From an uncultured Nitrososphaerota archaeon (GTDB taxonomy: Archaea; Korarchaeota; Korarchaeia; Korarchaeales; Korarchaeaceae), in the NCBI GenBank assembly GCA_964480775.1, contig CAYZRF010000005.1:30001-62000 (forward strand): a stretch of DNA of 32,000 bases. The letters are read 5' to 3'. Position 1 is the first letter of the stretch. Each line of letters starts with the position of its first letter. Shown in pieces: positions 1,098 through 31,170 of the stretch. Under the pieces are notes generated by a model. That model saw nothing but the letters and a program-made list of their open reading frames with translations. It was not told where the DNA came from and searched no databases. The translations under genes and the position numbers were made by a program.

Positions 1098-1920
1098 GAG
1101 AGATTTGATAGCCTTAGCTGGTATAATTCTATTGGCTATGTCAATAATAGTTAGTGGCATTTATCTAGGCAAAAATAAGTCAGAAGAATTTGTATTATAC
1201 TGGATATATGACGAATCCATCTCAGACCTAAACAGGTCTGGGGAAGTTGCCATGGCGATGCAGTACATCGGCAGGACTATAAGCATACTATCTCAGGGGA
1301 ACATAGATCCTAGTAAAGGAAACTTCGTACCACTCATGTTATCAAACCTTAGCGCAGAGGAAAGGTCCTCGAACTCTTCTTATCTGGTGCTGATGAGAAA
1401 AGAATCGGGTGGGCCAGAAATTCTCTTGTTTCGAGAAAACTCCACTATAATGATTAAAGGAAGCAATTCTAGCGATTTTTATGCCGCAATAGGCAGGCTA
1501 ATCTTGGCAATGTGGGGAGACTACCTACTTGAGGTTCCTCAGCCAGGAAAGGGAATAGATGTAATACTAGTTGTAGATCCAATAACGGGAGATAAGGCTT
1601 ATGCCAGGTGTTGGCCCCCCAACCTTTCCGAACAGAGAGCAATGAGTGTAGAAATAACTTATCCCGATGGTAGTCCTGCTGATTTAGAATTAATTCCTAG
1701 CATATTATTGAATGGATACTACATCGGAGCTAAGAAAGAAGTGGCGGGCCCGGCGGGACTTGAACCCGCGACCTACGGCTTAGAAGGCCGTCGCTCTATC
1801 CAAACTGAGCTACGGGCCCGATTCTTGGATTTGCAGAACTCGGCACCTAATACTGTAGGATTTTGCTTATATAAAGCCTTTAGTGAAGAATGGGTTGTAT
1901 GGACAAGGGTGATGATTTGA
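1090..1920 (+). CDS. Hypothetical signal-anchored, N-x-S/T-rich extracellular protein; 3' end uncertain because the frame runs antisense through tRNA-Arg
   Basis: A TTG start overlaps the upstream stop by 8 nt. The N-terminus has RR followed by a 20-residue hydrophobic helix (LIALAGIILLAMSIIVSGIYL). Several sequons are present (NKS, NRS, NLS, NSS, NST). There is no in-frame stop until 1920, so the last ~60 codons are antisense to the tRNA and the next promoter. Confidence 0.5.
   Translation: MVRRDLIALAGIILLAMSIIVSGIYLGKNKSEEFVLYWIYDESISDLNRSGEVAMAMQYIGRTISILSQGNIDPSKGNFVPLMLSNLSAEERSSNSSYLVLMRKESGGPEILLFRENSTIMIKGSNSSDFYAAIGRLILAMWGDYLLEVPQPGKGIDVILVVDPITGDKAYARCWPPNLSEQRAMSVEITYPDGSPADLELIPSILLNGYYIGAKKEVAGPAGLEPATYGLEGRRSIQTELRARFLDLQNSAPNTVGFCLYKAFSEEWVVWTRVMI
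1731..1741 (-). terminator. Pyrimidine/T-rich tract directly 3' of tRNA-Arg
   Basis: The minus strand reads C-TTCTTTCTTA immediately after the encoded CCA. Archaeal termination typically uses T-rich tracts. Confidence 0.3.
1742..1819 (-). tRNA. tRNA-Arg (anticodon UCU), 78 nt, CCA encoded
   Basis: The reverse complement folds by hand into a perfect cloverleaf. Acceptor GGGCCCG/CGGGCCC; D stem GCUC/GAGC; anticodon stem ACGGC/GCCGU with loop CUUCUAA; variable loop AGGUC; T stem GCGGG/CCCGC with loop UUCAAGU; discriminator G; CCA. Confidence 0.95.
1867..1874. promoter_or_regulatory. Palindromic TATA box TTATATAA between tRNA-Arg and the 713-aa surface-protein gene
   Basis: It lies 16-25 nt upstream of the ATGs at 1890 and 1899, which fits a leaderless or near-leaderless transcript. 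It is also ~50 nt upstream of the tRNA 5' end on the other strand. Confidence 0.4.
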
Positions 1921-12511: not shown

Positions 12512-13153
12512 CTACCTGAACACAAAGCCTTTCTCAGAATACCAAAGGTACAAATCCAACTCAGCTAAGCTCGCATTACATAATCTGGCAATTTCTCTCA
12601 GCTTATCCTCAAGATAAACATATCTTTTCCTCGTCAATGTCCTTGGAATCTCCTGAACGATATCATACTTTACCATCGTCCTGAGAATGTGCCTGTCTAA
12701 TATAGCCAGGTCCTTCCTACCAATATTCCTCAGAAAGTGACTGGCTTCCTTCATCCCAAATCCCTTTATTCTATTCTTCAGCCACTCTCTGGCCTCAAAA
12801 TCAACAAGTTTAGGTACGGTTCCGTATACCTCATCTAACTTGCTTCTAGCCCCAACAATAAAGGAGGCTTTTGTGTTATAGAACCTGTAACCCTTTGTTT
12901 TTAGAAAATAGAGAATTTCTTCTTTGCTTCCTGAGATCAGTAGCCCGGATCTCTCCAGTTCGAGTGCCATCCCATAGGCTTTTACGGCTGAAAAGTTGGC
13001 TGCCAAGATGCAAAAAACCATCTCCTTCAACCAAACATGCTTGCCAGAATTTCCAATTAGTTCAAATTCCTTAAGCCGGCCCTCTACCTCTTTTCTAACC
13101 GTGATATCTTTCCTAAGGTCTCTTACCTTATTTGCGAGTTCGGCAGATCCCAT
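12512..13153 (-). CDS. ogg: N-glycosylase/DNA lyase (archaeal Ogg2-type 8-oxoguanine DNA glycosylase)
   Basis: Strong resemblance to the MJ0724-type Ogg: FCILAANFSA..., HhH-GPD region IKGFGMKEASHFLRNIG..LAILDRHIL, and C-terminus ELDLYLWY. Confidence 0.88.
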   Translation of the reverse strand: MGSAELANKVRDLRKDITVRKEVEGRLKEFELIGNSGKHVWLKEMVFCILAANFSAVKAYGMALELERSGLLISGSKEEILYFLKTKGYRFYNTKASFIVGARSKLDEVYGTVPKLVDFEAREWLKNRIKGFGMKEASHFLRNIGRKDLAILDRHILRTMVKYDIVQEIPRTLTRKRYVYLEDKLREIARLCNASLAELDLYLWYSEKGFVFR

Positions 13154-13231
13154 TGTTTATCACTCGCCTTGCGTTACGGTTAAGTATTGCTTTGCACATC
13201 CGATAATTACGAAGGGAGTATAGTGATTAAA

Positions 13232-14185
13232 ATGTCTGAAGAAGATTTCGTGGAAGTCCTGAAAGGGCTGCCTGGCGTAGGAAATGTGACGGCAAAAAAG
13301 CTCATTGAAGCAGGTTATGTTACGCTTGAGTCTATAGCTTTGAGCACTCCTGCGGAGCTAGTAGTTAACGCTGGATTGACTGAATCTACAGCTAAGAAGG
13401 TGATAAACTCTGCAAGACAGAAGTTGAGCATTGAGGTAACTACTGCCTACGACTATTATCTCAAGAAAAAGGAAACTTTGAGAATAACTACAGGATCAAA
13501 GAATCTTGATGATCTATTGGGAGGAGGAGTTGAAACGCAATCAATCACCGAGATATATGGGCCCTATGGTTCTGGGAAAACTCAACTGGCCCACCAACTG
13601 GCTGTCACAGTTCAACTTCCAATTGAAAAGGGAGGAATAGATAGAGGATGTCTTTTCATAGACACAGAAGGGACTTTCAGGCCGGAAAGAGTGATGCAGA
13701 TAGCTGAAGCTTTTGATATAGACCCCGGTGAGGCGTTAAAGCGCATACTTTATGCAAGAGCATATACGAGTGATCATCAAATATTAGTTACAGCGAAAGC
13801 AGAAAAGATGCTAAAGAAAGAAAATATAGGTCTGATAGTCGTTGATTCTCTTATAAGCCACTTTAGAGGGGAGTACACTGGAAGAGAAACTCTTGCAGAA
13901 AGACAACAAAAGCTAAACAAGTACATTCACATGCTCTTGAAATATGCTACTGGCTATAATTTAGCTGTTCTTGTTACTAATCAAGTAATGGCGGATCCAA
14001 GCACCTTCTTTGGTGATCCTACAAGACCAACAGGCGGTCATGTGATAGGTCATGGAGTCACAACCAGGCTATACATTAGACGTGGTAAGGAGGGTAGAAG
14101 GGTCATAAAACTTACGAAGAGTCCTTATCTACCAGAAGGATCTGTTGAGATAATGATAACCGACAAAGGCATCGTTGATGTTTAA
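13232..14185 (+). CDS. radA: DNA repair and recombination protein RadA
   Basis: N-terminal HhH (LPGVGNVTAKKLIEAGY), Walker A GPYGSGKTQ, Walker B LIVVDSL and the Rad51/RadA core. I prefer the start at MSEEDF (ATG 13232) over the TTG at 13187. Confidence 0.96.
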   Translation: MSEEDFVEVLKGLPGVGNVTAKKLIEAGYVTLESIALSTPAELVVNAGLTESTAKKVINSARQKLSIEVTTAYDYYLKKKETLRITTGSKNLDDLLGGGVETQSITEIYGPYGSGKTQLAHQLAVTVQLPIEKGGIDRGCLFIDTEGTFRPERVMQIAEAFDIDPGEALKRILYARAYTSDHQILVTAKAEKMLKKENIGLIVVDSLISHFRGEYTGRETLAERQQKLNKYIHMLLKYATGYNLAVLVTNQVMADPSTFFGDPTRPTGGHVIGHGVTTRLYIRRGKEGRRVIKLTKSPYLPEGSVEIMITDKGIVDV

Positions 14186-14437
14186 ATGGGTGGTGAACAG
14201 CTTCTGCTGCATGACGACTGGATAGAATTTGAAGGAAAAAAGATAAGGCTGAAAAAGGGCATGAGAGTCTCTCATTTAATGAGAGGTCTGAGAGTATCCC
14301 CTCTAACCCACATAGCTATAGTAAATGGAAGACCAGTACCTGAAGACTACCCCTTGGAGCCCAAAGACTCCGTAGAATTTCTCATGTTCACAGTTCACAA
14401 AGAAATGGGTGGCGTTCAGCGTGAGAAGACCTTGTGA
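14186..14437 (+). CDS. ThiS/MoaD/TtuB-like beta-grasp (ubiquitin-fold) small protein with an internal Gly-Gly
   Basis: The ATG directly follows the radA TAA. The pattern ...LRVSPLTHIAIVNGRPVPEDYPLEPKDSVEFLMF..MGG resembles sulfur-carrier ThiS/TtuB proteins. Seven residues (VQREKTL) follow the GG. The 3' end overlaps the next gene by 29 nt. Confidence 0.6.
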   Translation: MGGEQLLLHDDWIEFEGKKIRLKKGMRVSHLMRGLRVSPLTHIAIVNGRPVPEDYPLEPKDSVEFLMFTVHKEMGGVQREKTL

Positions 14438-15368
14438 TCGCTGTGGTGAGAGAGAAGCGGTCATAAGAATCGAAAGCCTGAATGAGAGCATATGCGATAA
14501 GTGCTTATCGGTTAGGATTTGGAGAAGGGTTAAATCAGTTTTGGATCACGAGATTGAAGACGGAGATGTCATAGTAAGTGCTCTATCTGGAGGAAAAGAC
14601 AGCTCGCTCATGTTATATTACTTGTGGAAATACAAGAAGGAGTTGGACAGGGACTTTGATATAGTTGCTGTGACAATAGATGAGGGGACATGTTATAGAG
14701 CAGAATCGATATCTAAGGCAAAAGAGTTTACATCTAGGCTTGGGGTTAAGCACAGAATAGTGAAAATGAGCGAAATATTTGCCTTTTCAATACCACAAGT
14801 ACAAATTCTACTTTCAAAAACCAAAATAAAAAGAGATCTGTGCACTTATTGTGGAGTATTTAGGAGACAAGCGCTGAACATTGTAGCTAGGGAAGAGGGA
14901 GCAACAAAAGTAGCAACCGGGCACAATTTGGACGATATGACTCAGACACTATTCATGAACTTAATAAGAGGAGATATAAGCGCAATGGCACGCCTTTTTT
15001 CCAAAGCTCCGCTTACAACGAAACTAATTCCAAGAATAAGACCATTAACCAAAGTTCCAGAGAAAGAAGTAGCGGTTCAGGCCTTATTGCTTGGAATTCC
15101 TGCTCATTTCGGCAAATGTCCAATGGTATCAGGAATGAGAGTTAGAGTAAGAAGGCTTATAGACAGCTTTGAAGAGCAAAGCCCCGGATTTAAGGAAAGA
15201 GCATTCGACTTTATTGAGAGACTCGTTAAAAAGGCCATTCCAGAACTTACACGTAACTTCGAACTGAAATATTGTAAGCTTTGTGGAGAACCAACGACTC
15301 AGGAACTGTGCAAAGTCTGTCAGTTTAAACAAGAGCTAGAAACAGAGTTAGCAACTACAGTTGGCTAA
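14409..15368 (+). CDS. tRNA 2-thiolation PP-loop ATPase (TtuA / NcsA-Ncs6 family)
   Basis: PP-loop SGGKDSS. N- and C-terminal zinc fingers (CDRCG...CDKC and CKLCG...CKVC). Fe-S ligand candidates CTYCG and GKCP. Start is GTG 14409, with GTG 14421 as an alternative. Confidence 0.85.
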   Translation: MAFSVRRPCDRCGEREAVIRIESLNESICDKCLSVRIWRRVKSVLDHEIEDGDVIVSALSGGKDSSLMLYYLWKYKKELDRDFDIVAVTIDEGTCYRAESISKAKEFTSRLGVKHRIVKMSEIFAFSIPQVQILLSKTKIKRDLCTYCGVFRRQALNIVAREEGATKVATGHNLDDMTQTLFMNLIRGDISAMARLFSKAPLTTKLIPRIRPLTKVPEKEVAVQALLLGIPAHFGKCPMVSGMRVRVRRLIDSFEEQSPGFKERAFDFIERLVKKAIPELTRNFELKYCKLCGEPTTQELCKVCQFKQELETELATTVG

Positions 15369-16677
15369 GTGAGAGCGGCACGAGTTCTTCTGGTTTTGGT
15401 ATAAAGGGAACTTCAGCTGCTTTAGGCCTTAGACCGTATTCTAGAGCTCTATTTGAGTAGTTAAGAATCAGCCTCATGAGATTCCTTCCCATTACAGTAC
15501 CTATTCCTCCTCTAATACACCTAAGCTCGTCAAATCTACCAACATCATCTTCTAGAATTCCTTTCCCAGAGATTAATAATGGAACAGGATCTCCTGAATG
15601 TTTTCCTAAAGAACAAGGTGTTGAGTGATCGCCTGTCAAGAGTACTAAATAATCTTCTGATAGATCCAACAAAGGTTCTAAAGCATCATTTATCCTCTCA
15701 AGTATCTTAACTTTAAGATAGGGGTCTTTCATATGAGATGCAACGTCTGTGGCCTTTATGTGAACAAATACAAAGTCAAACTTTGATTCCAACGCACCTA
15801 TTCCTTTTCTAATCTTACCTTTGAAGTTAGAGTTAGGCAAACCAGTTGCTCCCTCGACTTCCAATAATTCCATCCCCACGCTTCTAGCAATGCCCCTGTA
15901 CAAAGGTCCGACAGCTATGGCAGCGGATTTGAGTCCCCATTTCTCCTTAAAGCTAGAGATCTGTAATTTAGTAGCCGCTCCCCTAGGTAGAACTATGTTT
16001 GCTGGCAATAACCCGGACCGCTTCCTTTCCACATTTATATCTAGGTCTTTGAGTATTTCGTATGATTTTAGAACGAACTCCTTTAGAGCAAGCGCGGTTT
16101 TCTTCGCCCCAAGATGTGAGACAATAGGCTGTGGCTCCAAGACAGGATATCCTTTCTCATGAGGGTCCACATCAGTCACTTGAGGTTTGAGATCAGGTCC
16201 TTTTAGGATCAGGATTCCTCTATGTTCTAATGTATGCATGAGAATCGCTTTTACCTCTCCATTCATCAAGTCCATTTCTTTAACAGCCGAAGCAACCAAC
16301 TCAGCGTCTTTTCCTGAAATTCGACCAGCCCGTCTGTCTTTCACGATTAAATTCTTACCTTCTCTCTCAACAGTTCCAAAATTTACTCTAAAAACGATAT
16401 CACCATATTCGATCTTTACATCCCAACCCAAGGCTTCAAAATAGCCTCTTCCGGGATATTCTCTTTTAATATCGTACCCTAGCATTGAAAGTTGGGCAGT
16501 ATCACTTCCTGGAGGTATTCCAGGGCCCAACGGATAATGCCTTCCAACCATCCCAGTAGCTGCTAGCAAATCGAAACTAGGGATATCTGCCTTTTGGAGT
16601 GGAGTAAGTCCGTTTAACTCCCTACAGGGCCTATCTCCTAGTCCATCTAATATTATGAAGCAAACCTTTCTTTGCAT
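15355..16677 (-). CDS. apgM: 2,3-bisphosphoglycerate-independent phosphoglycerate mutase, archaeal type
   Basis: VCFIILDGLGDRP..., TGDHSTP and HIKATD motifs. I prefer the start at MQRKVCF (ATG 16677) because the AT-rich box at 16702-16711 is then ~25-34 nt upstream. The longer ORF reaches 16701. Confidence 0.9.
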   Translation of the reverse strand: MQRKVCFIILDGLGDRPCRELNGLTPLQKADIPSFDLLAATGMVGRHYPLGPGIPPGSDTAQLSMLGYDIKREYPGRGYFEALGWDVKIEYGDIVFRVNFGTVEREGKNLIVKDRRAGRISGKDAELVASAVKEMDLMNGEVKAILMHTLEHRGILILKGPDLKPQVTDVDPHEKGYPVLEPQPIVSHLGAKKTALALKEFVLKSYEILKDLDINVERKRSGLLPANIVLPRGAATKLQISSFKEKWGLKSAAIAVGPLYRGIARSVGMELLEVEGATGLPNSNFKGKIRKGIGALESKFDFVFVHIKATDVASHMKDPYLKVKILERINDALEPLLDLSEDYLVLLTGDHSTPCSLGKHSGDPVPLLISGKGILEDDVGRFDELRCIRGGIGTVMGRNLMRLILNYSNRALEYGLRPKAAEVPFIPKPEELVPLSLSQL

Positions 16678-16701
16678 AAGGGTCGTTTTAATTGATAGCA
16701 T

Positions 16702-16742: not shown

Positions 16743-17495
16743 ATGGGATGGAACAAAATAGTCGAACTTATCGATGTGAAAGATCCCGTACCGATAGCTA
16801 TAGCTGGCTATCCAGGGATGGGAAACATTGGAATTCAGGTTGTGTCATATCTAGCCGATAAACTCGATGCAGAGCTTACAGCCAAAATATACTCAGAATA
16901 TCTTATGTTGTCGAGCAATGTAGCTGGGATAATAATAAACAAGGACGGAACATTCAAGTTGCCTGCAATTGAAATTAGGTTAGCAAAGAAAGGGAAAAAC
17001 AAGTTGTTTTTAGTAAGCTCTCCAATTCAACCAGTTCCCTGGGGGCAGCTTGAGGTTTCATCTCTTCTTTTTGACTATTTAAAGAAAAAAGGTGTTGAGA
17101 TCATCTTTATAATAGCTGGATTTGTTGATAGAACCCTTTACAACACGGTAATAACCTTTGGAGACGAGGAATGGACCAAGAAATTAGAAGAACTGGGATC
17201 AATTAGAAACGAAACAATAAGATCAGTAATCGGTCTTGCAGGAGCGAATTTAACGTTAGCGAGGTTGAGAGGGCTTAGATATGTCTTTATCTCTGGAGTA
17301 GCAGCAGATTACCTACCAGATCCGAAGCCAGCTCAGAATATCTTGAATAAACTTAACTCCATCATGAGCTTAGGTATTGACATGGAAGAGATGGGAAAGA
17401 GAGTTAAAGAGTTTGAAAGCAAGCTACAACCAAAAGAAGAGTCAGAGACGAGCAAGGATGAAAAAGAGAACGCGTCTATGAACTATTTGGGGTGA
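16743..17495 (+). CDS. PAC2-family proteasome assembly chaperone (PbaA/PbaB-like), paralogue 1
   Basis: IAIAGYPGMGNIG..., QPVPWGQ and an acidic C-terminal tail. It is paralogous to 20266-21036. Confidence 0.85.
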   Translation: MGWNKIVELIDVKDPVPIAIAGYPGMGNIGIQVVSYLADKLDAELTAKIYSEYLMLSSNVAGIIINKDGTFKLPAIEIRLAKKGKNKLFLVSSPIQPVPWGQLEVSSLLFDYLKKKGVEIIFIIAGFVDRTLYNTVITFGDEEWTKKLEELGSIRNETIRSVIGLAGANLTLARLRGLRYVFISGVAADYLPDPKPAQNILNKLNSIMSLGIDMEEMGKRVKEFESKLQPKEESETSKDEKENASMNYLG

Positions 17496-20265: not shown

Positions 20266-21036
20266 TTGTCCTTGATCGAACTAATAGAACACAAAAAAGT
20301 CCAACCAGATAGCCCCGTGCTCATTCAAGGACTGCCGGGGCTAGGGTTAGTTGGGAAAATCGCTGTTCAATATCTGATTGATCAGTATGACCCGCCTCTA
20401 ATAGCAAAGATAGTTAGTGACCTGATACCCCTCCCCGATGGCTCGGCTGGTGTTAGAGTAGAAGAAGAGGATCTGAAACTAGCTTCCATAGACCTATACT
20501 ATCTTAAAAGAGAAGGTTCAAAAAGAGACCTGCTTCTAATGACTTCAGAAGCACAACCAGTTCCCTGGGGTCAATATAGAATCGCTGAAAGGGTCATTAA
20601 ATATGTTAGGGCCCTTGATGTCGGCCTAGTTCTTGCTTTGGGCGGGTATGTTCCAGGATCTCTTAACGTAAAAGGAGTCTTTGCATGTACAAATGATTCA
20701 GATCTAATGAAAGAGCTGGAATCGTATGGGGTTAAGAGGTTAAGAGGAGGATACGTAACAGGAGCCTGTGGCATAATAGTAGGTGTGGCCCATGTTTATG
20801 GAATAAAAAGCGCCTGTTTGCTAGGAACAACAGGCGGATCATTTCCAGATCCCGGAGCTTCTAAGAATGTCCTGCTTGTTGTTGACAAAATAGTGGGAGG
20901 ACAGACTGATTTCTCTGAAATGGATAAAATGATCGAGAAAGAGCGTGAACTTATGGAAGAACTCAGACGCGCAGCAAGAGAAGTAGCTGAAGCAGAAACT
21001 CCTAAAGAGGAAACTTCTCTCCCTTACCACATGTAA
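20266..21036 (+). CDS. PAC2-family proteasome assembly chaperone (PbaA/PbaB-like), paralogue 2
   Basis: VLIQGLPGLGLVG..., QPVPWGQ and an acidic/helical tail ending LPYHM. TTG start. Confidence 0.85.
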   Translation: MSLIELIEHKKVQPDSPVLIQGLPGLGLVGKIAVQYLIDQYDPPLIAKIVSDLIPLPDGSAGVRVEEEDLKLASIDLYYLKREGSKRDLLLMTSEAQPVPWGQYRIAERVIKYVRALDVGLVLALGGYVPGSLNVKGVFACTNDSDLMKELESYGVKRLRGGYVTGACGIIVGVAHVYGIKSACLLGTTGGSFPDPGASKNVLLVVDKIVGGQTDFSEMDKMIEKERELMEELRRAAREVAEAETPKEETSLPYHM

Positions 21037-23364: not shown

Positions 23365-24723
23365 TCATAAAATTGCTGAAGTGAATCCTACATTGTGAAC
23401 CGCCATTAATGGAGTCACAACAGGAACTTCCCACTCCATCCACCAATGAAATACGGGTATAGCCTCTCTAGAGACTTGATAGACGTTCGAAAGGAGATTT
23501 AACAGGTTATCACTAAGCCTGAGCCCTCTGACTTCTTCTATTATTTCACCATTCTTCACTCTAAAGACACCATCTCTTATTACTGCAGAAAAATCTCCTG
23601 TTCTGTAATTTTGGAACCTCAAATATGTGGCGTTCTTAACAATAAGACCTTCCTTCATTTCTTCGATAAGCTCCTCGTCTTTTGTCTCTCCTGGCTTAAG
23701 TATGAGATACCAAGGTTTCGGAATGATCCAACCCGCATTTGCAGTGGAATTGGTATTAAATGCTTTGGCAGTTAGTCTGTTGTGAAGATAGGTTTTTAGA
23801 ACCCCTTCTTCTATGATAACGTTCCTTTTTGTTGGCAATCCTTCATCATCATGAACCCTAGACCCATACCCTGCTGACATCAATGGATCATCTATAAGAG
23901 TAACCTTTTCAGAAGCTATTTTTTGGTCTATTTTGTCCACATAGGGTGACATTTGCATGAGAATGTATAGAGCAGATGCCATATGACCAAATATACCAAC
24001 TAGGTTTCCTAACGCACTTCTACCAAATATCACATTGTATTTACCTGGCTCTCCCTTTGTATGGTTCTTTGCTAGCATAGCGTCTCTCCCTGCTTCCATC
24101 CCGGCCCTTTTTGGATCCAAACCTGATAATGACCTGGAACAGGTTGTTCCGTGTCCAGTAGCCTCTTCATTAGCAAAGGCCCTGATTTCTAGATATACTT
24201 GGCTATCTCTAGAACAAATGTTAACTCCCCCTGTTGTAACTAAACATGAGTATCCAGCACGAGATTTTACTACGCCTGCAACTCTCTCGGCCCCTTCTGA
24301 TAAAGCCGAATCTATGGCGGTCTTGGCCATATCAACGAGTTCATCTTCAGCTTCTAGAATTCTATCGTCATACAGATCTTGAACTAGAGGGTACTCAAAA
24401 GGACCTTCTGGCATGGATGCATACACTGGTCTAGGAGGCAGGTACTTCATAGAATCTACAGATCCCTCAATAAACCTTTTAAGGCTCTCTAGTTGAAGAT
24501 CTTCTGTTTCTACCACCAAAATCCTCTTTTCCTTTCCTATACATACGGAAATCCTTTTGTAAAGCCATGTATTTGCAATATCAGCTTTGTTTTGAGAGAA
24601 CCTCAGATGTCTACCAACATCTTCCTTGTATATTACAGCAACATCCTCTGCTCCTTTTCCGAGAGCTATGTCTACTACATCTTGAGCAATACTAAAACCT
24701 TCCTCAAAGGATTCAGATTCCAC
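23365..24723 (-). CDS. pmbA: PmbA/TldE-family protein (non-catalytic partner of TldD)
   Basis: TldD/PmbA-fold sequence lacking HExxxH. I prefer the start at GTG 24723, which overlaps the tldD stop by 11 nt. The 26 extra N-terminal codons in the track lie inside tldD. Confidence 0.8.
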   Translation of the reverse strand: MESESFEEGFSIAQDVVDIALGKGAEDVAVIYKEDVGRHLRFSQNKADIANTWLYKRISVCIGKEKRILVVETEDLQLESLKRFIEGSVDSMKYLPPRPVYASMPEGPFEYPLVQDLYDDRILEAEDELVDMAKTAIDSALSEGAERVAGVVKSRAGYSCLVTTGGVNICSRDSQVYLEIRAFANEEATGHGTTCSRSLSGLDPKRAGMEAGRDAMLAKNHTKGEPGKYNVIFGRSALGNLVGIFGHMASALYILMQMSPYVDKIDQKIASEKVTLIDDPLMSAGYGSRVHDDEGLPTKRNVIIEEGVLKTYLHNRLTAKAFNTNSTANAGWIIPKPWYLILKPGETKDEELIEEMKEGLIVKNATYLRFQNYRTGDFSAVIRDGVFRVKNGEIIEEVRGLRLSDNLLNLLSNVYQVSREAIPVFHWWMEWEVPVVTPLMAVHNVGFTSAIL

Positions 24724-26131
24724 CAAGCCTAACACCTCGCAACCTAACGCTAGGCCCCCCAAACCACACCGGTACGGCCTGTCCAGGATCACTTTTTCCA
24801 CACAATCCAGGAGTGAATTCTATATCTTTTCCAACAGCATCTATGCTTGAGTAAAATGCTGGCGTTGTAATTTCTAGAATGGGCCTCTTTACCATCTTAT
24901 CCAGCTTACCATTCTTTATTAAGTAAGCTTCTGAACCCACATATCTTTGATTATACCTTCTATCATCTATGTTCCACTCGGTAAAGCGAGCAATGAATAC
25001 ACCTTGTCTTACACCTTCTATTAGCTCGTCCTGAGAGAAGTCACCAGGGAGCATAAACGTATTAGCCATGCGTATTATTGGCTCTCTATCATAGGAAGAG
25101 GCCCTAGCAGAAGCGTTGCTCTTGATCCCAAAAATAGCAGCAGTCTCTCTGTTATGTAAAAATTCGTTAATGATACCGTTTTTCATCAGGACTCTCCTCC
25201 TAGCTTTGACTCCCTCCATATCATAGAGATAGAATCCGCTGCTGCCCTCGATAGTTGGATCGTCAACTACAGTTACGACTTCTGATCCTATCCTTGTGCT
25301 AAGCATGTCAGGTTTTACAAACGATTCACCCGCTTGGGCAGCCTCTCTTCCTAATATCCTATCGGCCTCATAGGGATGTCCAGTAGATTCATGCATCATT
25401 AGACCGACCACATAAGGACCCAAAACCAAATCCATTTTTCCTTTAGGAGGAGAAATTCCTTTTTCCAAACACTCTTTCATTACATCGGCTATCCTCGAGA
25501 CCTCTTCCAAGAAATTCCAGCCCTCTACAAGCTCCCAACCACCACTCCCCTCTTTCTCAACGAATTCTTGAGCTGACTCAGCTCCACTCACCAGCGTTAG
25601 TGTTGCATTTCCACCCACTCGCGTTACATCTCCTTCAACGCGCGAACCCTCTGAGTTTACGTAGTAAACCTGCTCTCTTGAATTTCTCAAAGACAAATTT
25701 CTGGATGAAATACCCTTCTCTTTTGCCAGTTCGTCTATAGATCTGAGAAACTCTATCTTTTCCTCCAAAGGTATGTCTTCTGGCCTTTTAAGAACCTTAG
25801 AAGCGTATGAAGCCTCTTCAAAGCTCTCTTCAGATAATTTAAGCCTCTTAGAGATTTTTGAACATGCCTTTGCTCCTTTGACTGCGTTCTCAATAGCTTT
25901 TTCGACTTTATTTGGATCGTTTGTTGATGCAAACCCCATAGATCCATCAATAATAACCCTTATACCAATTCCCGCAACAGAAACGTTGGCAAGGGCTTCA
26001 ATATTTCCATTAATCATGAAAAGGTTATTAGAGCGGTTAATCTGATACCTTGCTTCTGCATAATCCACATTCATTCCTAGAGCACGTCTAACCGCATATT
26101 CAACCACATCTTTTGGTTCCCCAGGCATCAT
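24713..26131 (-). CDS. tldD: TldD-family zinc metalloprotease
   Basis: HExxxH motif HESTGHPYEADR. The C-terminal GLCGK/GxC region is typical of TldD. An AGGGTG SD overlaps the upstream stop. Confidence 0.9.
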   Translation of the reverse strand: MMPGEPKDVVEYAVRRALGMNVDYAEARYQINRSNNLFMINGNIEALANVSVAGIGIRVIIDGSMGFASTNDPNKVEKAIENAVKGAKACSKISKRLKLSEESFEEASYASKVLKRPEDIPLEEKIEFLRSIDELAKEKGISSRNLSLRNSREQVYYVNSEGSRVEGDVTRVGGNATLTLVSGAESAQEFVEKEGSGGWELVEGWNFLEEVSRIADVMKECLEKGISPPKGKMDLVLGPYVVGLMMHESTGHPYEADRILGREAAQAGESFVKPDMLSTRIGSEVVTVVDDPTIEGSSGFYLYDMEGVKARRRVLMKNGIINEFLHNRETAAIFGIKSNASARASSYDREPIIRMANTFMLPGDFSQDELIEGVRQGVFIARFTEWNIDDRRYNQRYVGSEAYLIKNGKLDKMVKRPILEITTPAFYSSIDAVGKDIEFTPGLCGKSDPGQAVPVWFGGPSVRLRGVRLGGI

Positions 26132-29137: not shown

Positions 29138-30232
29138 TTAAGATTTGTTTTTCACAATAGGACGCCTAGAGATCTCAAAGGGAGCATCCAAAGGAGCCAT
29201 CTCAATTATCTCACCCTCTAACTCCTTTGACAGTAGTAGAGATTTGTTTTCAAAAACAATGTAGGGCGGAACTAAGAGCTCTTTACCTCTTAATTCAAAA
29301 GAATACAAGCCCATTTTCTCTAAGAAGCTTTTGAATTCTAGTAATTTGCTGAGGTTCCCTCGTATCACACCGAACATTATAGTGCCTTGGTCAGTTATGC
29401 GTTGATAGGGCTTTGCAACGTTTTTAGCCCTTCTTCTCCATCTATTAAGAACCTGTACTTCTTTTACCTCCGCAGAGCAGAAATAACCAAGAAGCCCAGT
29501 CTCCCTTTCTATATAATCTAAAACCCTCTTTGCAGTTTCTTTGCTTCCAGAAACAGCGACTCCGCTATTAATTCTAACACCATAGCCCCGAGATAAAAGA
29601 ATGGTTCTATTTCCCTCGCTAAATTCCAATTCATTGATATTTAAGAAATGAGCCCCAATAGAATCAAGGAACTTCGTAAGCTTCATTAATCTCTTTTCGT
29701 ACACTCTTTCTGGTATCGATGGCATCTCAGCTCCAACCCTAAAGTTGAAGTTTAGAGCATGTCTAATTTTTTCCCAGTCCTTCCTTTGCCAAGTATGAAA
29801 TCTAATCTCATTTAAACCAGCAGATTCTAATTTCCCCAAACTTTTAGGGTTAATACCCGCTGAATTTGTGTAAAGGTGCACATCGAATTTCTTCCCGAAG
29901 TTTTCTTTCAAAACCCGTATGTACCTACAAACCCTGTCTATAACTAAACTTGGTTCTCCCCCAGTTATTCCGGCTCCTTCGGCATCTATGAGCCTTGCTT
30001 CTCTTAGAAAATCTGATTCATCATGAACTCTTATCTCATCTGCAAAAACCCAGTCCTTTCCTCTTCTCTCAGAGGAAATCGTGCAATAAAAACAGGTCGA
30101 ATACCGCGGGCATAGTCCTGTGGCAAATAAGACGAGTTTACCCCCTCTCCAACAAATTTCGCAGGAGGGGCTTTTACCTCTTACCATTAATGAACCATAA
30201 GGGAGTTCAATCATCAGTTTATTTTCCTCCAA
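29138..30232 (-). CDS. Radical SAM-like protein with a non-canonical CX5CX2C cluster motif
   Basis: GLCPRYSTCFYCT (CX5CX2C), preceded by CEICW. GGEPS (the SAM-binding GGE motif) is present and the layout looks TIM-barrel-like. The TTG at 30232 abuts the upstream stop. ATG 30214, 11 nt after a GGAGG, is an alternative start. Confidence 0.8.
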   Translation of the reverse strand: MEENKLMIELPYGSLMVRGKSPSCEICWRGGKLVLFATGLCPRYSTCFYCTISSERRGKDWVFADEIRVHDESDFLREARLIDAEGAGITGGEPSLVIDRVCRYIRVLKENFGKKFDVHLYTNSAGINPKSLGKLESAGLNEIRFHTWQRKDWEKIRHALNFNFRVGAEMPSIPERVYEKRLMKLTKFLDSIGAHFLNINELEFSEGNRTILLSRGYGVRINSGVAVSGSKETAKRVLDYIERETGLLGYFCSAEVKEVQVLNRWRRRAKNVAKPYQRITDQGTIMFGVIRGNLSKLLEFKSFLEKMGLYSFELRGKELLVPPYIVFENKSLLLSKELEGEIIEMAPLDAPFEISRRPIVKNKS

Positions 30233-30472
30233 TTACAGCCTTTTAACGCGAAGAATCCAATAATTATCTTTTCTGTCCGAGGTTACAGACGCCCAGCTTA
30301 CTCTCTCACCCCATTCCCTTGCCTGTTCAACCGTCTCCCTATCATCAGTTAAAACCAGAAGAAATTCCTTTGATTTCAAGGATTTTGCTACCTTAGCTAG
30401 AGTAATTATTGTGCCTGGAAAGCTCTTGCCCCTTAAGTCTATCTTTTTAACAAAGCTTTTCTTTCCGTTCAC
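30233..30472 (-). CDS. TusA/SirA-fold protein lacking the catalytic cysteine
   Basis: IDLRGKSFPGTIITLAKVAKSL...LLVLTDD aligns by eye with E. coli TusA LDALGLRCPEPVMMVRKTV...LLIIADD. The Cys is replaced by Phe and there is no Cys anywhere in the 79 aa. The GTG start overlaps the upstream TGA (GTGA). Confidence 0.75.
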   Translation of the reverse strand: MNGKKSFVKKIDLRGKSFPGTIITLAKVAKSLKSKEFLLVLTDDRETVEQAREWGERVSWASVTSDRKDNYWILRVKRL

Positions 30473-30999
30473 TTGCTCTTCACCCTATACCCCAATACAG
30501 CACTGATAAGCCGTTCGTCTGCTCTTTCAGAAACTGGTTTTACCATAAGATAGCCGTCCTCACCATCGCTGTAATACTTAGGCATGATGCCCAAAACCCT
30601 ATAATCTAGCTTTTTGTATAGGGAAATGGCTGGTTCATTTGAAATCCTAACTTCTAGATAAACTAGATCTACGCCATAGGTATTAACTAATCCCGCTTCA
30701 GCGCCTTTCATGAGAGCTGTTGCTATCCCCTGCCTTCTGTGCTTCTTCTCTACAGCTATAGAGAGGACATGCCCGAGCTTGATAGGACTAAATCTATAGT
30801 ACTTCTCCTCAACCCTACACATAACATAGCCCACTATTTTGCCTTCAGATTCGGCCACAAGAAAAGCCTCTGGCCAATGTGTGTAGTTTTCCAAGAAGAA
30901 AAACGAAGGGTAGTTCTCAGGAAGAAAGACCCAGTTAAGCTTAACAACGTTGTCTAGATCTTTAGGATTGAACCTTCTAATGATGTACTGTTTCTGCAT
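30469..30999 (-). CDS. ard1: N-alpha-acetyltransferase, Ard1/RimI type (GNAT)
   Basis: Collinear with Sulfolobus Ard1 as I recall it: LPENYP.FFF, VGYVM, GHV.SIAV....RRQGIATALM, YLEVR.SN.PAI.LY.KL.Y and YY.DGEDGYLM. I prefer ATG 30999, preceded by GAGGTGGGG. The longer track ORF adds a hydrophobic, non-homologous 45 aa. Confidence 0.88.
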   Translation of the reverse strand: MQKQYIIRRFNPKDLDNVVKLNWVFLPENYPSFFFLENYTHWPEAFLVAESEGKIVGYVMCRVEEKYYRFSPIKLGHVLSIAVEKKHRRQGIATALMKGAEAGLVNTYGVDLVYLEVRISNEPAISLYKKLDYRVLGIMPKYYSDGEDGYLMVKPVSERADERLISAVLGYRVKSK

Positions 31000-31170
31000 C
31001 GCCCCACCTCGATCAGAAAACCTTACATCAAACAAAGTTTTAAACGCCACCCAAACGATCACAACGGGGTAAAACGAAAAGTGTTTCCGACACCCTATAG
31101 CTTCATCATAGATGTTGTAAGCAGAAACTTTCATGTGGTTGACGTTACTGAAACGCCAACTGGGCTTGAG

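Follow-up and report, generated by a model that had tools for sequence, protein, structure and literature searches.

The window analysed here, a 32-kb stretch of a Korarchaeial contig to which all positions refer, carries a gene for an 83 aa ubiquitin-like (Ubl) protein of the SAMP2/ThiS family. This gene, here called ubl, lies between radA and ncsA, the latter encoding an NcsA/Ncs6-type PP-loop thiolase with a [4Fe-4S] cluster. On balance and with some reserve, we favour the reading that the locus is the Korarchaeial version of the archaeal pair of a ThiS/SAMP2-type Ubl and NcsA, in which the Ubl would work as a trimmed carrier and its contact with radA would be derived. It is highly probable that the Ubl takes part in tRNA thiolation in one way or another, together with NcsA. 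The pairing as such is already known and catalogued for Korarchaeum cryptofilum (PMC2948915): Sections of the survey by Makarova and Koonin (2010) report linkage between genes of ThiS-family proteins and PP-loop Ncs6 orthologues in many diverse archaea, the Korarchaeum pair included, and present this pair without comment on its non-canonical C-terminus or on radA (PMC2948915). Three properties appear to be undescribed. One is a T-x-H motif that is found class-wide in place of the canonical Gly-Gly. Another is a displaced Gly-Gly with an overlap-encoded tail in one subclade. The third is the stepwise disappearance of Gly and of the hairpin at the N-terminus in other lineages.

The 83 aa protein and its relatives

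The ubl gene (14186-14437, + strand) begins immediately behind radA. As the original prediction had read it, the radA stop codon TAA (14183-14185) abuts the ATG at 14186, which results in a TAA-ATG junction with zero spacing (14183-14188, + strand). The encoded protein has the sequence quoted there, MGGEQ...FTVHKEMGGVQREKTL, with an internal G75-G76 followed by VQREKTL. Its subfamily forms a single 50%-identity cluster among 1.84 billion representatives, and a metagenome scan yielded six loci that are mostly duplicates; the small size of the clade limits all statistics. About a dozen distinct orthologues occupy the same position and originate from hydrothermal vent and Guaymas-type sediment metagenomes. 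Judged by its source labels and by the relatives of its thiolases (Ca. Methanodesulfokora, Ca. Korarchaeum), the subfamily belongs to the Korarchaeia. Related loci used for comparison are denoted by L-numbers. One match from a GTDB scan (L009, 51% over 35 residues, labelled 'uncultured bacterium') was discarded as spurious: It is located on a high-GC bacterial contig and has no corresponding open reading frame (ORF).

The small ORF had been proposed to encode a ThiS/TtuB-like ubiquitin-fold protein, and profile, model and structure comparisons support a ubiquitin fold of the ThiS/SAMP2 type. It matches the Pfam family SAMP2 (PF21965) with 30.7 bits at a cutoff of 27, as do 9 of the 11 clade members tested against this profile. 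Of the other expected profile matches, ThiS (PF02597) is sub-threshold (19.6 vs 22.5 bits) and Urm1 is absent: Neither the Pfam family PF09138 nor a Urm1 chain in the PDB profile search was recovered at E<=1, and membership in Urm1 was rejected. ThiS-like and TGS matches are weak, too, and the NCBIfam equivalog cutoffs for SAMP2 and ThiS are not reached. The closest relative of solved structure is Pyrococcus furiosus SAMP2/PF1061 (3e-8, PDB profile search).

The structure prediction made for the 83 aa protein likewise yielded a beta-grasp. An AlphaFold2 (AF2) model built on five orthologues has the order beta-beta-alpha-beta-beta-beta, with predicted local distance difference test (pLDDT) values of ~84-93 over residues 11-70. 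It is disordered from about residue 68, and pLDDT drops below 50 at residues 78-83. DSSP assigns strands to residues 12-15, 18-21, 42-46, 49-51 and 62-67 and a helix to residues 28-34; this core of beta1, beta2, alpha1, beta3, beta4 and beta5 (residues 12-67) corresponds to 14219-14386 (+ strand). In Foldseek, TtuB in its complex with TtuA is the best PDB match of the model; ThiS, SUMO and ubiquitin come next, all four with a probability of 1.0. The ubiquitin of Caldiarchaeum subterraneum is a distant fold match only (rank 17). At the level of this comparison, ThiS and TGS folds are indistinguishable.

Selection on the protein was estimated from the ratio of nonsynonymous to synonymous substitution rates (dN/dS) by the Nei-Gojobori method (NG86) across five distinct close orthologues. 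The overall value is 0.13. It amounts to 0.37 in the hairpin (residues 12-25), 0.086 in the core (26-67) and 0.079 in the tail segment FTVHKEMGG (68-76), which is constrained to the same degree as the fold. These data argue that the 83 aa ORF encodes a genuine beta-grasp protein that is translated and under purifying selection.

Some relatives have an altered N-terminus. In two samples (L012:1661-1828 and P0037), the Ubl comprises only 55-56 aa and starts at helix alpha1, and beta1-beta2 is not encoded in any frame. In L004 (9927-10000), L005 (4400-4473) and L007 (58-110), 1-nt indels have moved the start right behind the radA stop out of the frame of the Ubl body; the beta1-beta2 codons are still open in frame, but a canonical start is absent. 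L004 and L005 are identical and possibly not independent assemblies.

The partner thiolase

Directly downstream, ncsA (14421-15368, + strand) encodes 315 aa from GTG 14421. Its product had been predicted to be a thiolase of TtuA/Ncs6 architecture with a PP-loop, twin zinc fingers and three Fe-S cysteines, and all these elements are present. The best PDB match is Methanococcus maripaludis NcsA (6SCY; 2e-46, 161 bits), the closest solved homologue, whose [4Fe-4S] site likewise has three cysteines and which shares the PP-loop and the zinc fingers. TtuA PH0300 ranks behind it (3e-33; TtuA 118 bits), as does Thermus TtuA. Among the NCBIfam models, NcsA is matched best (4.5e-51, 173.9 bits), yet far below its equivalog cutoff of 500. 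The ATP-binding PP-loop motif SGGKDS (14586-14603, + strand) was located by alignment to 6SCY and nine orthologues. The cluster cysteines C141 (14841-14843), C144 (14850-14852) and C233 (15117-15119) span 14841-15119 on the + strand and also align to 6SCY. Together with eight zinc-finger cysteines, which are arranged in two N-terminal and two C-terminal CxxC pairs, PP-loop and cluster cysteines are invariant in nine thiolase orthologues. Thermus thermophilus TtuA modifies U54, whereas the window enzyme is nearer to NcsA, which acts on U34 (161 vs ~106 bits). It is likely an NcsA-type U34 tRNA 2-thiouridine synthetase rather than a TtuA or TtcA.

The overlap between ubl and ncsA had been given as 29 nt, counted from a GTG at 14409. 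The stop-start overlap is real, but its length has to be corrected. GTG 14409 is merely the first start found mechanically. Since the ORFs of the relatives cannot begin 5' of MRRPCDRC, the start codon is most likely GTG 14421, which reduces the overlap to 17 nt and makes the protein equal in length to its orthologues. In every related locus, ubl is situated directly 5' of ncsA. The two genes overlap by 4, 17 or 23 nt; in the Korarchaeum-like locus L020, they are separated by a gap. In K. cryptofilum OPF8, arCOG00535 (73 aa, gi 170290827) adjoins arCOG00042 (328 aa), and these genes are the positional orthologues of the window pair.

The C-terminus: Gly-Gly, T-x-H and tail

Gly-Gly occupies residues 75-76 of 83 (codons GGT GGC, 14408-14413, + strand) and is, hence, internal. 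It is followed by the seven residues VQREKTL and the TGA stop codon (14414-14437, + strand), encoded by the overlap with the 5' end of ncsA. The original prediction was right about the internal position, and within the window subclade the motif is invariant; sister orthologues, however, have GD, GV or no Gly. A neighbour-joining (NJ) tree of the thiolases, calculated without support values, separates clade A with Gly-Gly from clade B, in which Gly-Gly is degraded, and the motif is conserved in clade A only. Clade A comprises the window group and L013, whose Ubl is only ~40% identical, yet has kept Gly-Gly. Proteins of the window group end in ...FTVHK(E/G)(M/L/T)GG plus 3 or 7 aa, that of L013 in ...FTTHEELGG plus 7 aa. 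L012 and P0037 have ...FTVHRESGD plus 5-6 aa, and L010, L017, L018 and L022 have ...VT(I/V)H(F/Y)(P/Q)GV. In L021 (Methanodesulfokora), the C-terminus reads ...ITYHFSPVEGNYEKMR, and its sole tail Gly lies within the GGAGGG Shine-Dalgarno (SD) sequence of ncsA. The Ubl of L020 ends in ...ITLHESPTDRSR and has no Gly in this region.

Another motif is shared by all. T69 and H71 of the T-x-H motif T69-V70-H71 (14390-14398, + strand; alignment of Korarchaeial orthologues) are invariant in all Korarchaeial orthologues, L020, L021 and L022 included. Urm1 ends in T-L-H-G-G; the likeness to T-x-H is only a lead, and the register is off by one residue. PF1061 of P. furiosus presumably ends in Gly-Gly, and its close relative P0026 ends in ...VIPVVSGG. 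PF1061 (PDB 1RWS; 5LDA with PfJAMM1) aligns to the window Ubl over beta2-beta5. To define the register, this alignment was extended without gaps and counted from the conserved Asp of beta5 (D61). H71 is then found at +10, the site of the penultimate Gly in canonical SAMP2, and H71-K72 occupy +10/+11. In this ungapped extension, PF1061 has 6 residues behind the aligned block, whereas the window Ubl has 10 before Gly-Gly and 7 after it.

What maintains Gly-Gly in clade A? It is invariant there, although the two residues before it and all residues after it vary, and GGT and its synonym GGC both occur as the first Gly codon. Conservation as an SD sequence for ncsA was considered and rejected as the main cause: An SD-like core overlaps the Gly-Gly codons in some members only, and the GGCGGC variants have no such core. 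Selection on Gly-Gly at the protein level therefore explains the pattern better, and it would most naturally mark a site of cleavage or activation. As in precursors of the QbsE/CxnE type, Gly-Gly is followed by further residues in the primary product (7 here; 3 or 7 in clade A).

The tail originates from the N-terminal ncsA codons (MRRPCD) read in another frame. In the junction DNA, GGT GGC GTT CAG C|GTG AGA AGA CCT TGT GAT yields GGVQREKTL*, and the ubl stop codon falls within the codons for Cys-Asp in the first NcsA zinc finger. Several close relatives have one extra T, which generates a TTGA stop-start overlap and a tail of 3 aa (DQR, VKR, VQH or AKG). In L013, TTG 821 provides the conserved ncsA start MKRTCDRC, and the tail overlaps ncsA. 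Because the 17-nt overlap of the window is also found in L007, L013 and the distant L021, this arrangement is probably ancestral, and the forms with 3 aa tails are more likely derived by insertion. Similarly, HRESGD of L012 resembles HKEMGG and HEELGG; therefore, H-x-E-x-G-G plus tail is probably ancestral, too, and would have decayed in clade B.

Proposed function of the Ubl

The following sequence of events can be proposed. radA, ubl and ncsA would be transcribed together from the radA promoter. Reinitiation at the UAA-AUG junction (Ubl) and at the 17-nt overlap (NcsA) would then provide matched amounts of the two complex partners. Overlapping co-directional gene pairs are translationally coupled and often encode subunits of a complex (PMC6728339, PMC10666635). 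In clade A, the Ubl would still be a sulfur donor: Its disordered tail would be cut behind G76 by an unlinked JAMM/MPN+ protease or another peptidase, an unlinked E1-like enzyme would adenylate and then thiocarboxylate the exposed Gly-Gly, and NcsA would receive the thiocarboxylate at the free iron of its cluster and form 2-thiouridine at position 34 (s2U34). A phyletic table within the survey of Makarova and Koonin, as read here, lists two E1-like genes, one unlinked JAB gene and no rhodanese for K. cryptofilum (PMC2948915). Trimming of a Ubl precursor in the window organism is plausible, albeit unproven; that the protein is both trimmed and thiocarboxylated at G76 has, in our estimate, slightly less than an even chance. 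In addition, the family-wide invariance of T-x-H and the decay of Gly-Gly in sister lineages indicate a role of the Ubl that would be independent of Gly-Gly, most simply non-covalent docking on NcsA.

Several known systems resemble this pair in part. Thermus thermophilus TtuB ends in the canonical Gly-Gly. In the TtuB-TtuA system (PDB 5GHA, 5ZTB), TtuB is the best structural match of the Ubl and TtuA is a homologue of the thiolase; the TtuB C-terminus delivers sulfur to the [4Fe-4S] enzyme TtuA (summarised in PMC10067955). In Haloferax volcanii, SAMP2, UbaA and NcsA likewise combine a SAMP2-family Ubl with an Ncs6-type thiolase for s2U34 (PMC4048286). There, SAMP2 associates with NcsA covalently as well as non-covalently, and HvJAMM1 acts behind Gly-Gly (PMC4048286). 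In H. volcanii SAMP2, however, Gly-Gly forms the very C-terminus, at the canonical distance, and in haloarchaea the SAMP2 gene is unlinked to ncsA. In the window, Gly-Gly is internal and displaced by 4 residues, the two genes overlap and no E1 or JAMM gene was found nearby. Bacterial QbsE (Gly-Gly plus CF, with QbsD) and CxnE (Gly-Gly plus 10 aa, with CxnF) are carriers of the ThiS/MoaD fold that have residues behind Gly-Gly (PMC5925218), and their trimming by a JAMM protease prior to adenylation has been proposed or shown (PMC5925218). They differ from the window Ubl in having the JAMM gene in their own cluster and in serving secondary metabolism, whereas the window has no linked JAMM gene, its tail is a by-product of the overlap, and the process concerned would be tRNA thiolation. 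NcsA of M. maripaludis differs in that it works in vitro on inorganic sulfide without a Ubl (PMC10067955). Several Methanococcales are without Ubl proteins, according to parts of the survey cited above (PMC2948915).

A number of observations weigh against a trimmed carrier. A terminal Gly-Gly is found in no member of the family among all Korarchaeial orthologues compared. The Gly-Gly of the window protein is located at +14/+15 instead of +10/+11 as in canonical SAMP2, and its distance from beta5 exceeds that of all canonical carriers examined by 4 residues. Clade B has D or V in place of the second Gly, or lacks Gly, while protein and T-x-H are retained; therefore, a function shared by the family cannot depend on a terminal Gly-Gly. 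The division into clades A and B itself comes from the NJ tree, which was calculated without support values. The beta1-beta2 hairpin was lost in the L012/P0037 lineage, and the start codons of L004/L005 and L007 are out of frame with the Ubl body. Neither the window nor the ~5-10 kb flanks of the related loci contain a JAMM or an E1 gene; JAB/MPN domains were searched for with Pfam in window ORFs of at least 90 aa and in the called genes of the 5-10 kb flanks. The E1, E2, RING E3 and Rpn11-like domains that are clustered with a pro-ubiquitin in the ubiquitin operon of Caldiarchaeum are all absent from the window, too. NcsA-type enzymes such as MmNcsA thiolate tRNA in vitro with sulfide alone (PMC10067955), and elemental sulfur bypasses Ubl carriers in Thermococcus kodakarensis (PMC11323500). 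This bypass offers a reason why selection on carrier chemistry might have been relaxed in sulfidic habitats. Finally, co-transcription, trimming, adenylation and complex formation are proposals made from sequence.

Part of these observations would fit a Ubl that is not activated at all, but serves as an accessory subunit on NcsA. It would bind to NcsA non-covalently via its beta-grasp, and its T-x-H tail would reside in the active-site channel, for example to cap or gate the free Fe of the [4Fe-4S] cluster or to help tRNA binding; sulfur would come from sulfide in the environment, and Gly-Gly would be a flexible hinge. We consider this possible, though doubtful. It would account for the invariance of T69 and H71, unlike Gly-Gly, in all Korarchaeial orthologues, for the location of H71 at the canonical penultimate-Gly position and for a Ubl tail as constrained as the core. 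The activity of NcsA with Na2S alone and the binding of hydrosulfide to its free Fe (PMC10067955) agree with it, as do the bypass of Ubls by S0 in T. kodakarensis (PMC11323500) and the source habitats, hydrothermal vent and Guaymas sediment. Subunits of heteromers are often encoded by overlapping gene pairs, and the weak TGS matches of the Ubl point in the same direction, since TGS is a beta-grasp domain known for RNA binding. In clade A, however, Gly-Gly is invariant amid variable neighbours, which a hinge explains less well than a cleavage or activation site. Moreover, ThiS and TGS cannot be separated at this level.

A more far-reaching variant, which we regard as unlikely, is that the Korarchaeial SAMP2 lineage gave up Gly-Gly chemistry altogether. 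T-x-H would have taken its place, and the Ubl would have become a dedicated, non-covalent NcsA subunit that gates, caps or protects the free cluster iron via its His tail, with sulfide as source. The displaced Gly-Gly and tail of the window clade would then be either a retained second function or a remnant.

The junction with radA and the remaining alternatives

The trimmed carrier remains our preferred reading, and it includes a derived contact between ubl and radA. The radA gene (13232-14185, + strand) encodes 317 aa and is free of inteins. Its product matches Pfam Rad51 (299 bits) and HHH_5 as well as the NCBIfam RadA models NF003301 (PRK04301; 442.8, cutoff 259) and TIGR02236 (423.2 vs 361); orthologues comprise 318 aa. 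In two sister Korarchaeial lineages (L022:2195-4774 and L010:59-1108), RadA has an intein at the P-loop. RadA of L022 is an 859 aa protein with Intein_splicing and LAGLIDADG domains, and at the GSGK|T site of the L010 protein, the sequence is ...TLLHN|TQLCHQ.

The original prediction had interpreted the tight coupling of radA and ubl as a sign that recombinational repair is co-regulated with tRNA thiolation or Ubl conjugation. This interpretation is weakened by the comparison with deeper lineages. The spacing between radA and ubl is 0 in L001 and L014; the genes overlap by 11 nt in L003/L006 and are separated by 7 nt in L010 and 31 nt in L012. In L020, L021, L013 and K. cryptofilum OPF8, a gene for a hexapeptide-repeat transferase lies between them on the opposite strand (L020:3957-4646, L021:4069-4773, L013:3-554, all minus; arCOG01848 in K. 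cryptofilum). There, radA and ubl-ncsA must be separate transcription units because of the strand of the intervening gene. The order in K. cryptofilum is arCOG00415 (radA position), arCOG01848 (minus), arCOG00535, arCOG00042, arCOG01696 (iPGM, opposite strand) and arCOG00348 (PAC2), which matches L020. It differs from that in the window by arCOG01848 between radA and ubl; in addition, the Korarchaeum-like L020 has a Ubl without Gly and a gap before ncsA. The transferase gene is absent from the whole 32-kb window and also missing in the L010/L012/L022 clade. According to the NJ tree, it was seemingly lost twice, and the abutment of radA seemingly arose twice. Since deeper Korarchaeia keep the intervening opposite-strand gene, the zero-spacing junction is taken to be derived by gene loss in a compact genome and not to reflect an ancient functional link. 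The linkage to radA quite probably has no specific functional meaning. The abutment may well yield co-transcription and reinitiation, and coupling by termination and reinitiation is documented for archaea (PMC6728339, PMC10666635). As evidence for selection that ties repair to thiolation, however, the abutment is weak.

A selected co-regulation, for example through modification of RadA by the Ubl or a damage-induced boost of thiolation, is therefore quite unlikely in our view. The zero-spacing or overlapping junctions in the window clade, the location of radA within ~1 kb of ubl throughout the Korarchaeia and the seemingly repeated origin of the abutment would speak for it, and part of the literature on Haloferax ties Ubl systems to survival of DNA damage (PMC10470531). 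Besides the opposite-strand gene in deeper lineages and K. cryptofilum, the neighbourhood speaks against it: The whole block from ogg to DUF354 is a conserved synteny of unrelated functions, and radA does not figure among the Ubl associations in the sections of Makarova and Koonin considered here (PMC2948915). In L004/L005 and L007, moreover, the start beside the radA stop is out of frame with the Ubl body. A further point is ATAATGATAAC (14150-14160, + strand), a candidate internal promoter inside the 3' end of radA, ~27 nt 5' of the ubl ATG. All six aligned orthologues have identical DNA here, down to the third positions of two Ile codons. This could reflect a TATA-like promoter for a leaderless ubl-ncsA transcript, or codon bias.

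That the ubl ORF is a decaying relic of a canonical carrier, kept open only by the ncsA overlap and the ribosome-binding region in a sulfide-rich habitat, is very unlikely. The degraded Gly-Gly of clade B, the truncated N-terminus in L012/P0037, the disrupted starts of L004/L005 and L007 and the sole tail Gly of L021 inside the GGAGGG SD sequence of ncsA might be viewed in this way. Yet dN/dS is ~0.09 over residues 26-76, which lie mostly outside the ncsA overlap, the family has been maintained throughout an archaeal class, its invariant motif included, and in the window the ATG is intact, the beta-grasp complete and Gly-Gly present. A Ubl-NcsA fusion made by programmed frameshifting within the 17-nt overlap of the two frames can be dismissed with near certainty because the frame relation varies among close relatives (ncsA +1 relative to ubl in the window, L007 and L013; +2 in L001, L003, L004 and L014 due to a 1-nt indel), no geometry is conserved and NcsA has its own conserved start MRRPCDRC.

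Gene neighbourhood

On the radA side, the unit is bounded by ogg (12512-13153, minus strand), which encodes an 8-oxoguanine glycosylase (Pfam Ogg-HhH). The intergenic region between the divergent ogg and radA (13154-13231) is the presumed promoter site for radA-ubl-ncsA, and an SD-like GTGAT is found ~5 nt 5' of the radA ATG at 13232. Downstream, the convergent archaeal iPGM gene (15355-16701, minus strand; Pfam PhosphMutase and Metalloenzyme) closes the unit and overlaps ncsA tail-to-tail by 14 nt. The block ogg-radA-...-ubl-ncsA-(iPGM)-PAC2-PadR-DUF354 is conserved across the Korarchaeia. iPGM occurs in the window clade as well as in L013, L020 and K. cryptofilum; L010, L012, L021 and L022 have no such gene, and PAC2 is there the next gene behind ncsA, in the same orientation.

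Two genes of the PAC2 family (proteasome assembly chaperone-like) are located in the window (16743-17495 and 20266-21036, + strand). Three PAC2 proteins, those encoded at 16743-17495 and in L010 and L012, end in Y-(L/V)-G. A link between ThiS and PAC2 in Thermoplasma is mentioned in part of the survey by Makarova and Koonin (PMC2948915). A TldD/PmbA metallopeptidase pair (23365-26131, minus strand) is syntenic at ~9 kb from ubl in all close relatives. Bacterial TldD/E trims unstructured peptides. A role of TldD/PmbA in trimming the Ubl tail would be pure speculation.

Two other observations concern sulfur transfer and tRNA. A 79 aa TusA-family protein (30233-30472, minus strand; PF01206, 41 bits, cutoff 28.6), in which the catalytic CPxP cysteine is replaced (DLRGKSFPGT), is encoded between genes for a GNAT acetyltransferase (30469-31134) and a radical-SAM protein (29138-30232). 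A tRNA-Arg(TCT) gene (1742-1819, minus strand) lies within the mechanical ORF 1090-1920, which has no Pfam match and is probably not a gene.

Implications

The pair of Ubl and thiolase is seen as the ancestral function that may have given rise to ubiquitin-like conjugation, and a free C-terminal Gly-Gly as its defining chemistry. Here, a class-wide archaeal lineage has kept the partner gene tightly coupled and under strong constraint, yet its product never terminates in Gly-Gly and has another invariant motif at this place. The natural series from Gly-Gly plus tail via GD and GV to the complete lack of Gly can serve as a probe of Ubl roles beyond sulfur carrying for an Fe-S thiolase. The same series bears on how dependence on Ubl carriers may be relaxed in sulfide-rich habitats. 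At the same time, an attractive connection of recombination with tRNA thiolation is removed as unsupported. If gating of the cluster proved true, a ubiquitin-fold sulfur carrier would have turned into a cluster-gating subunit.

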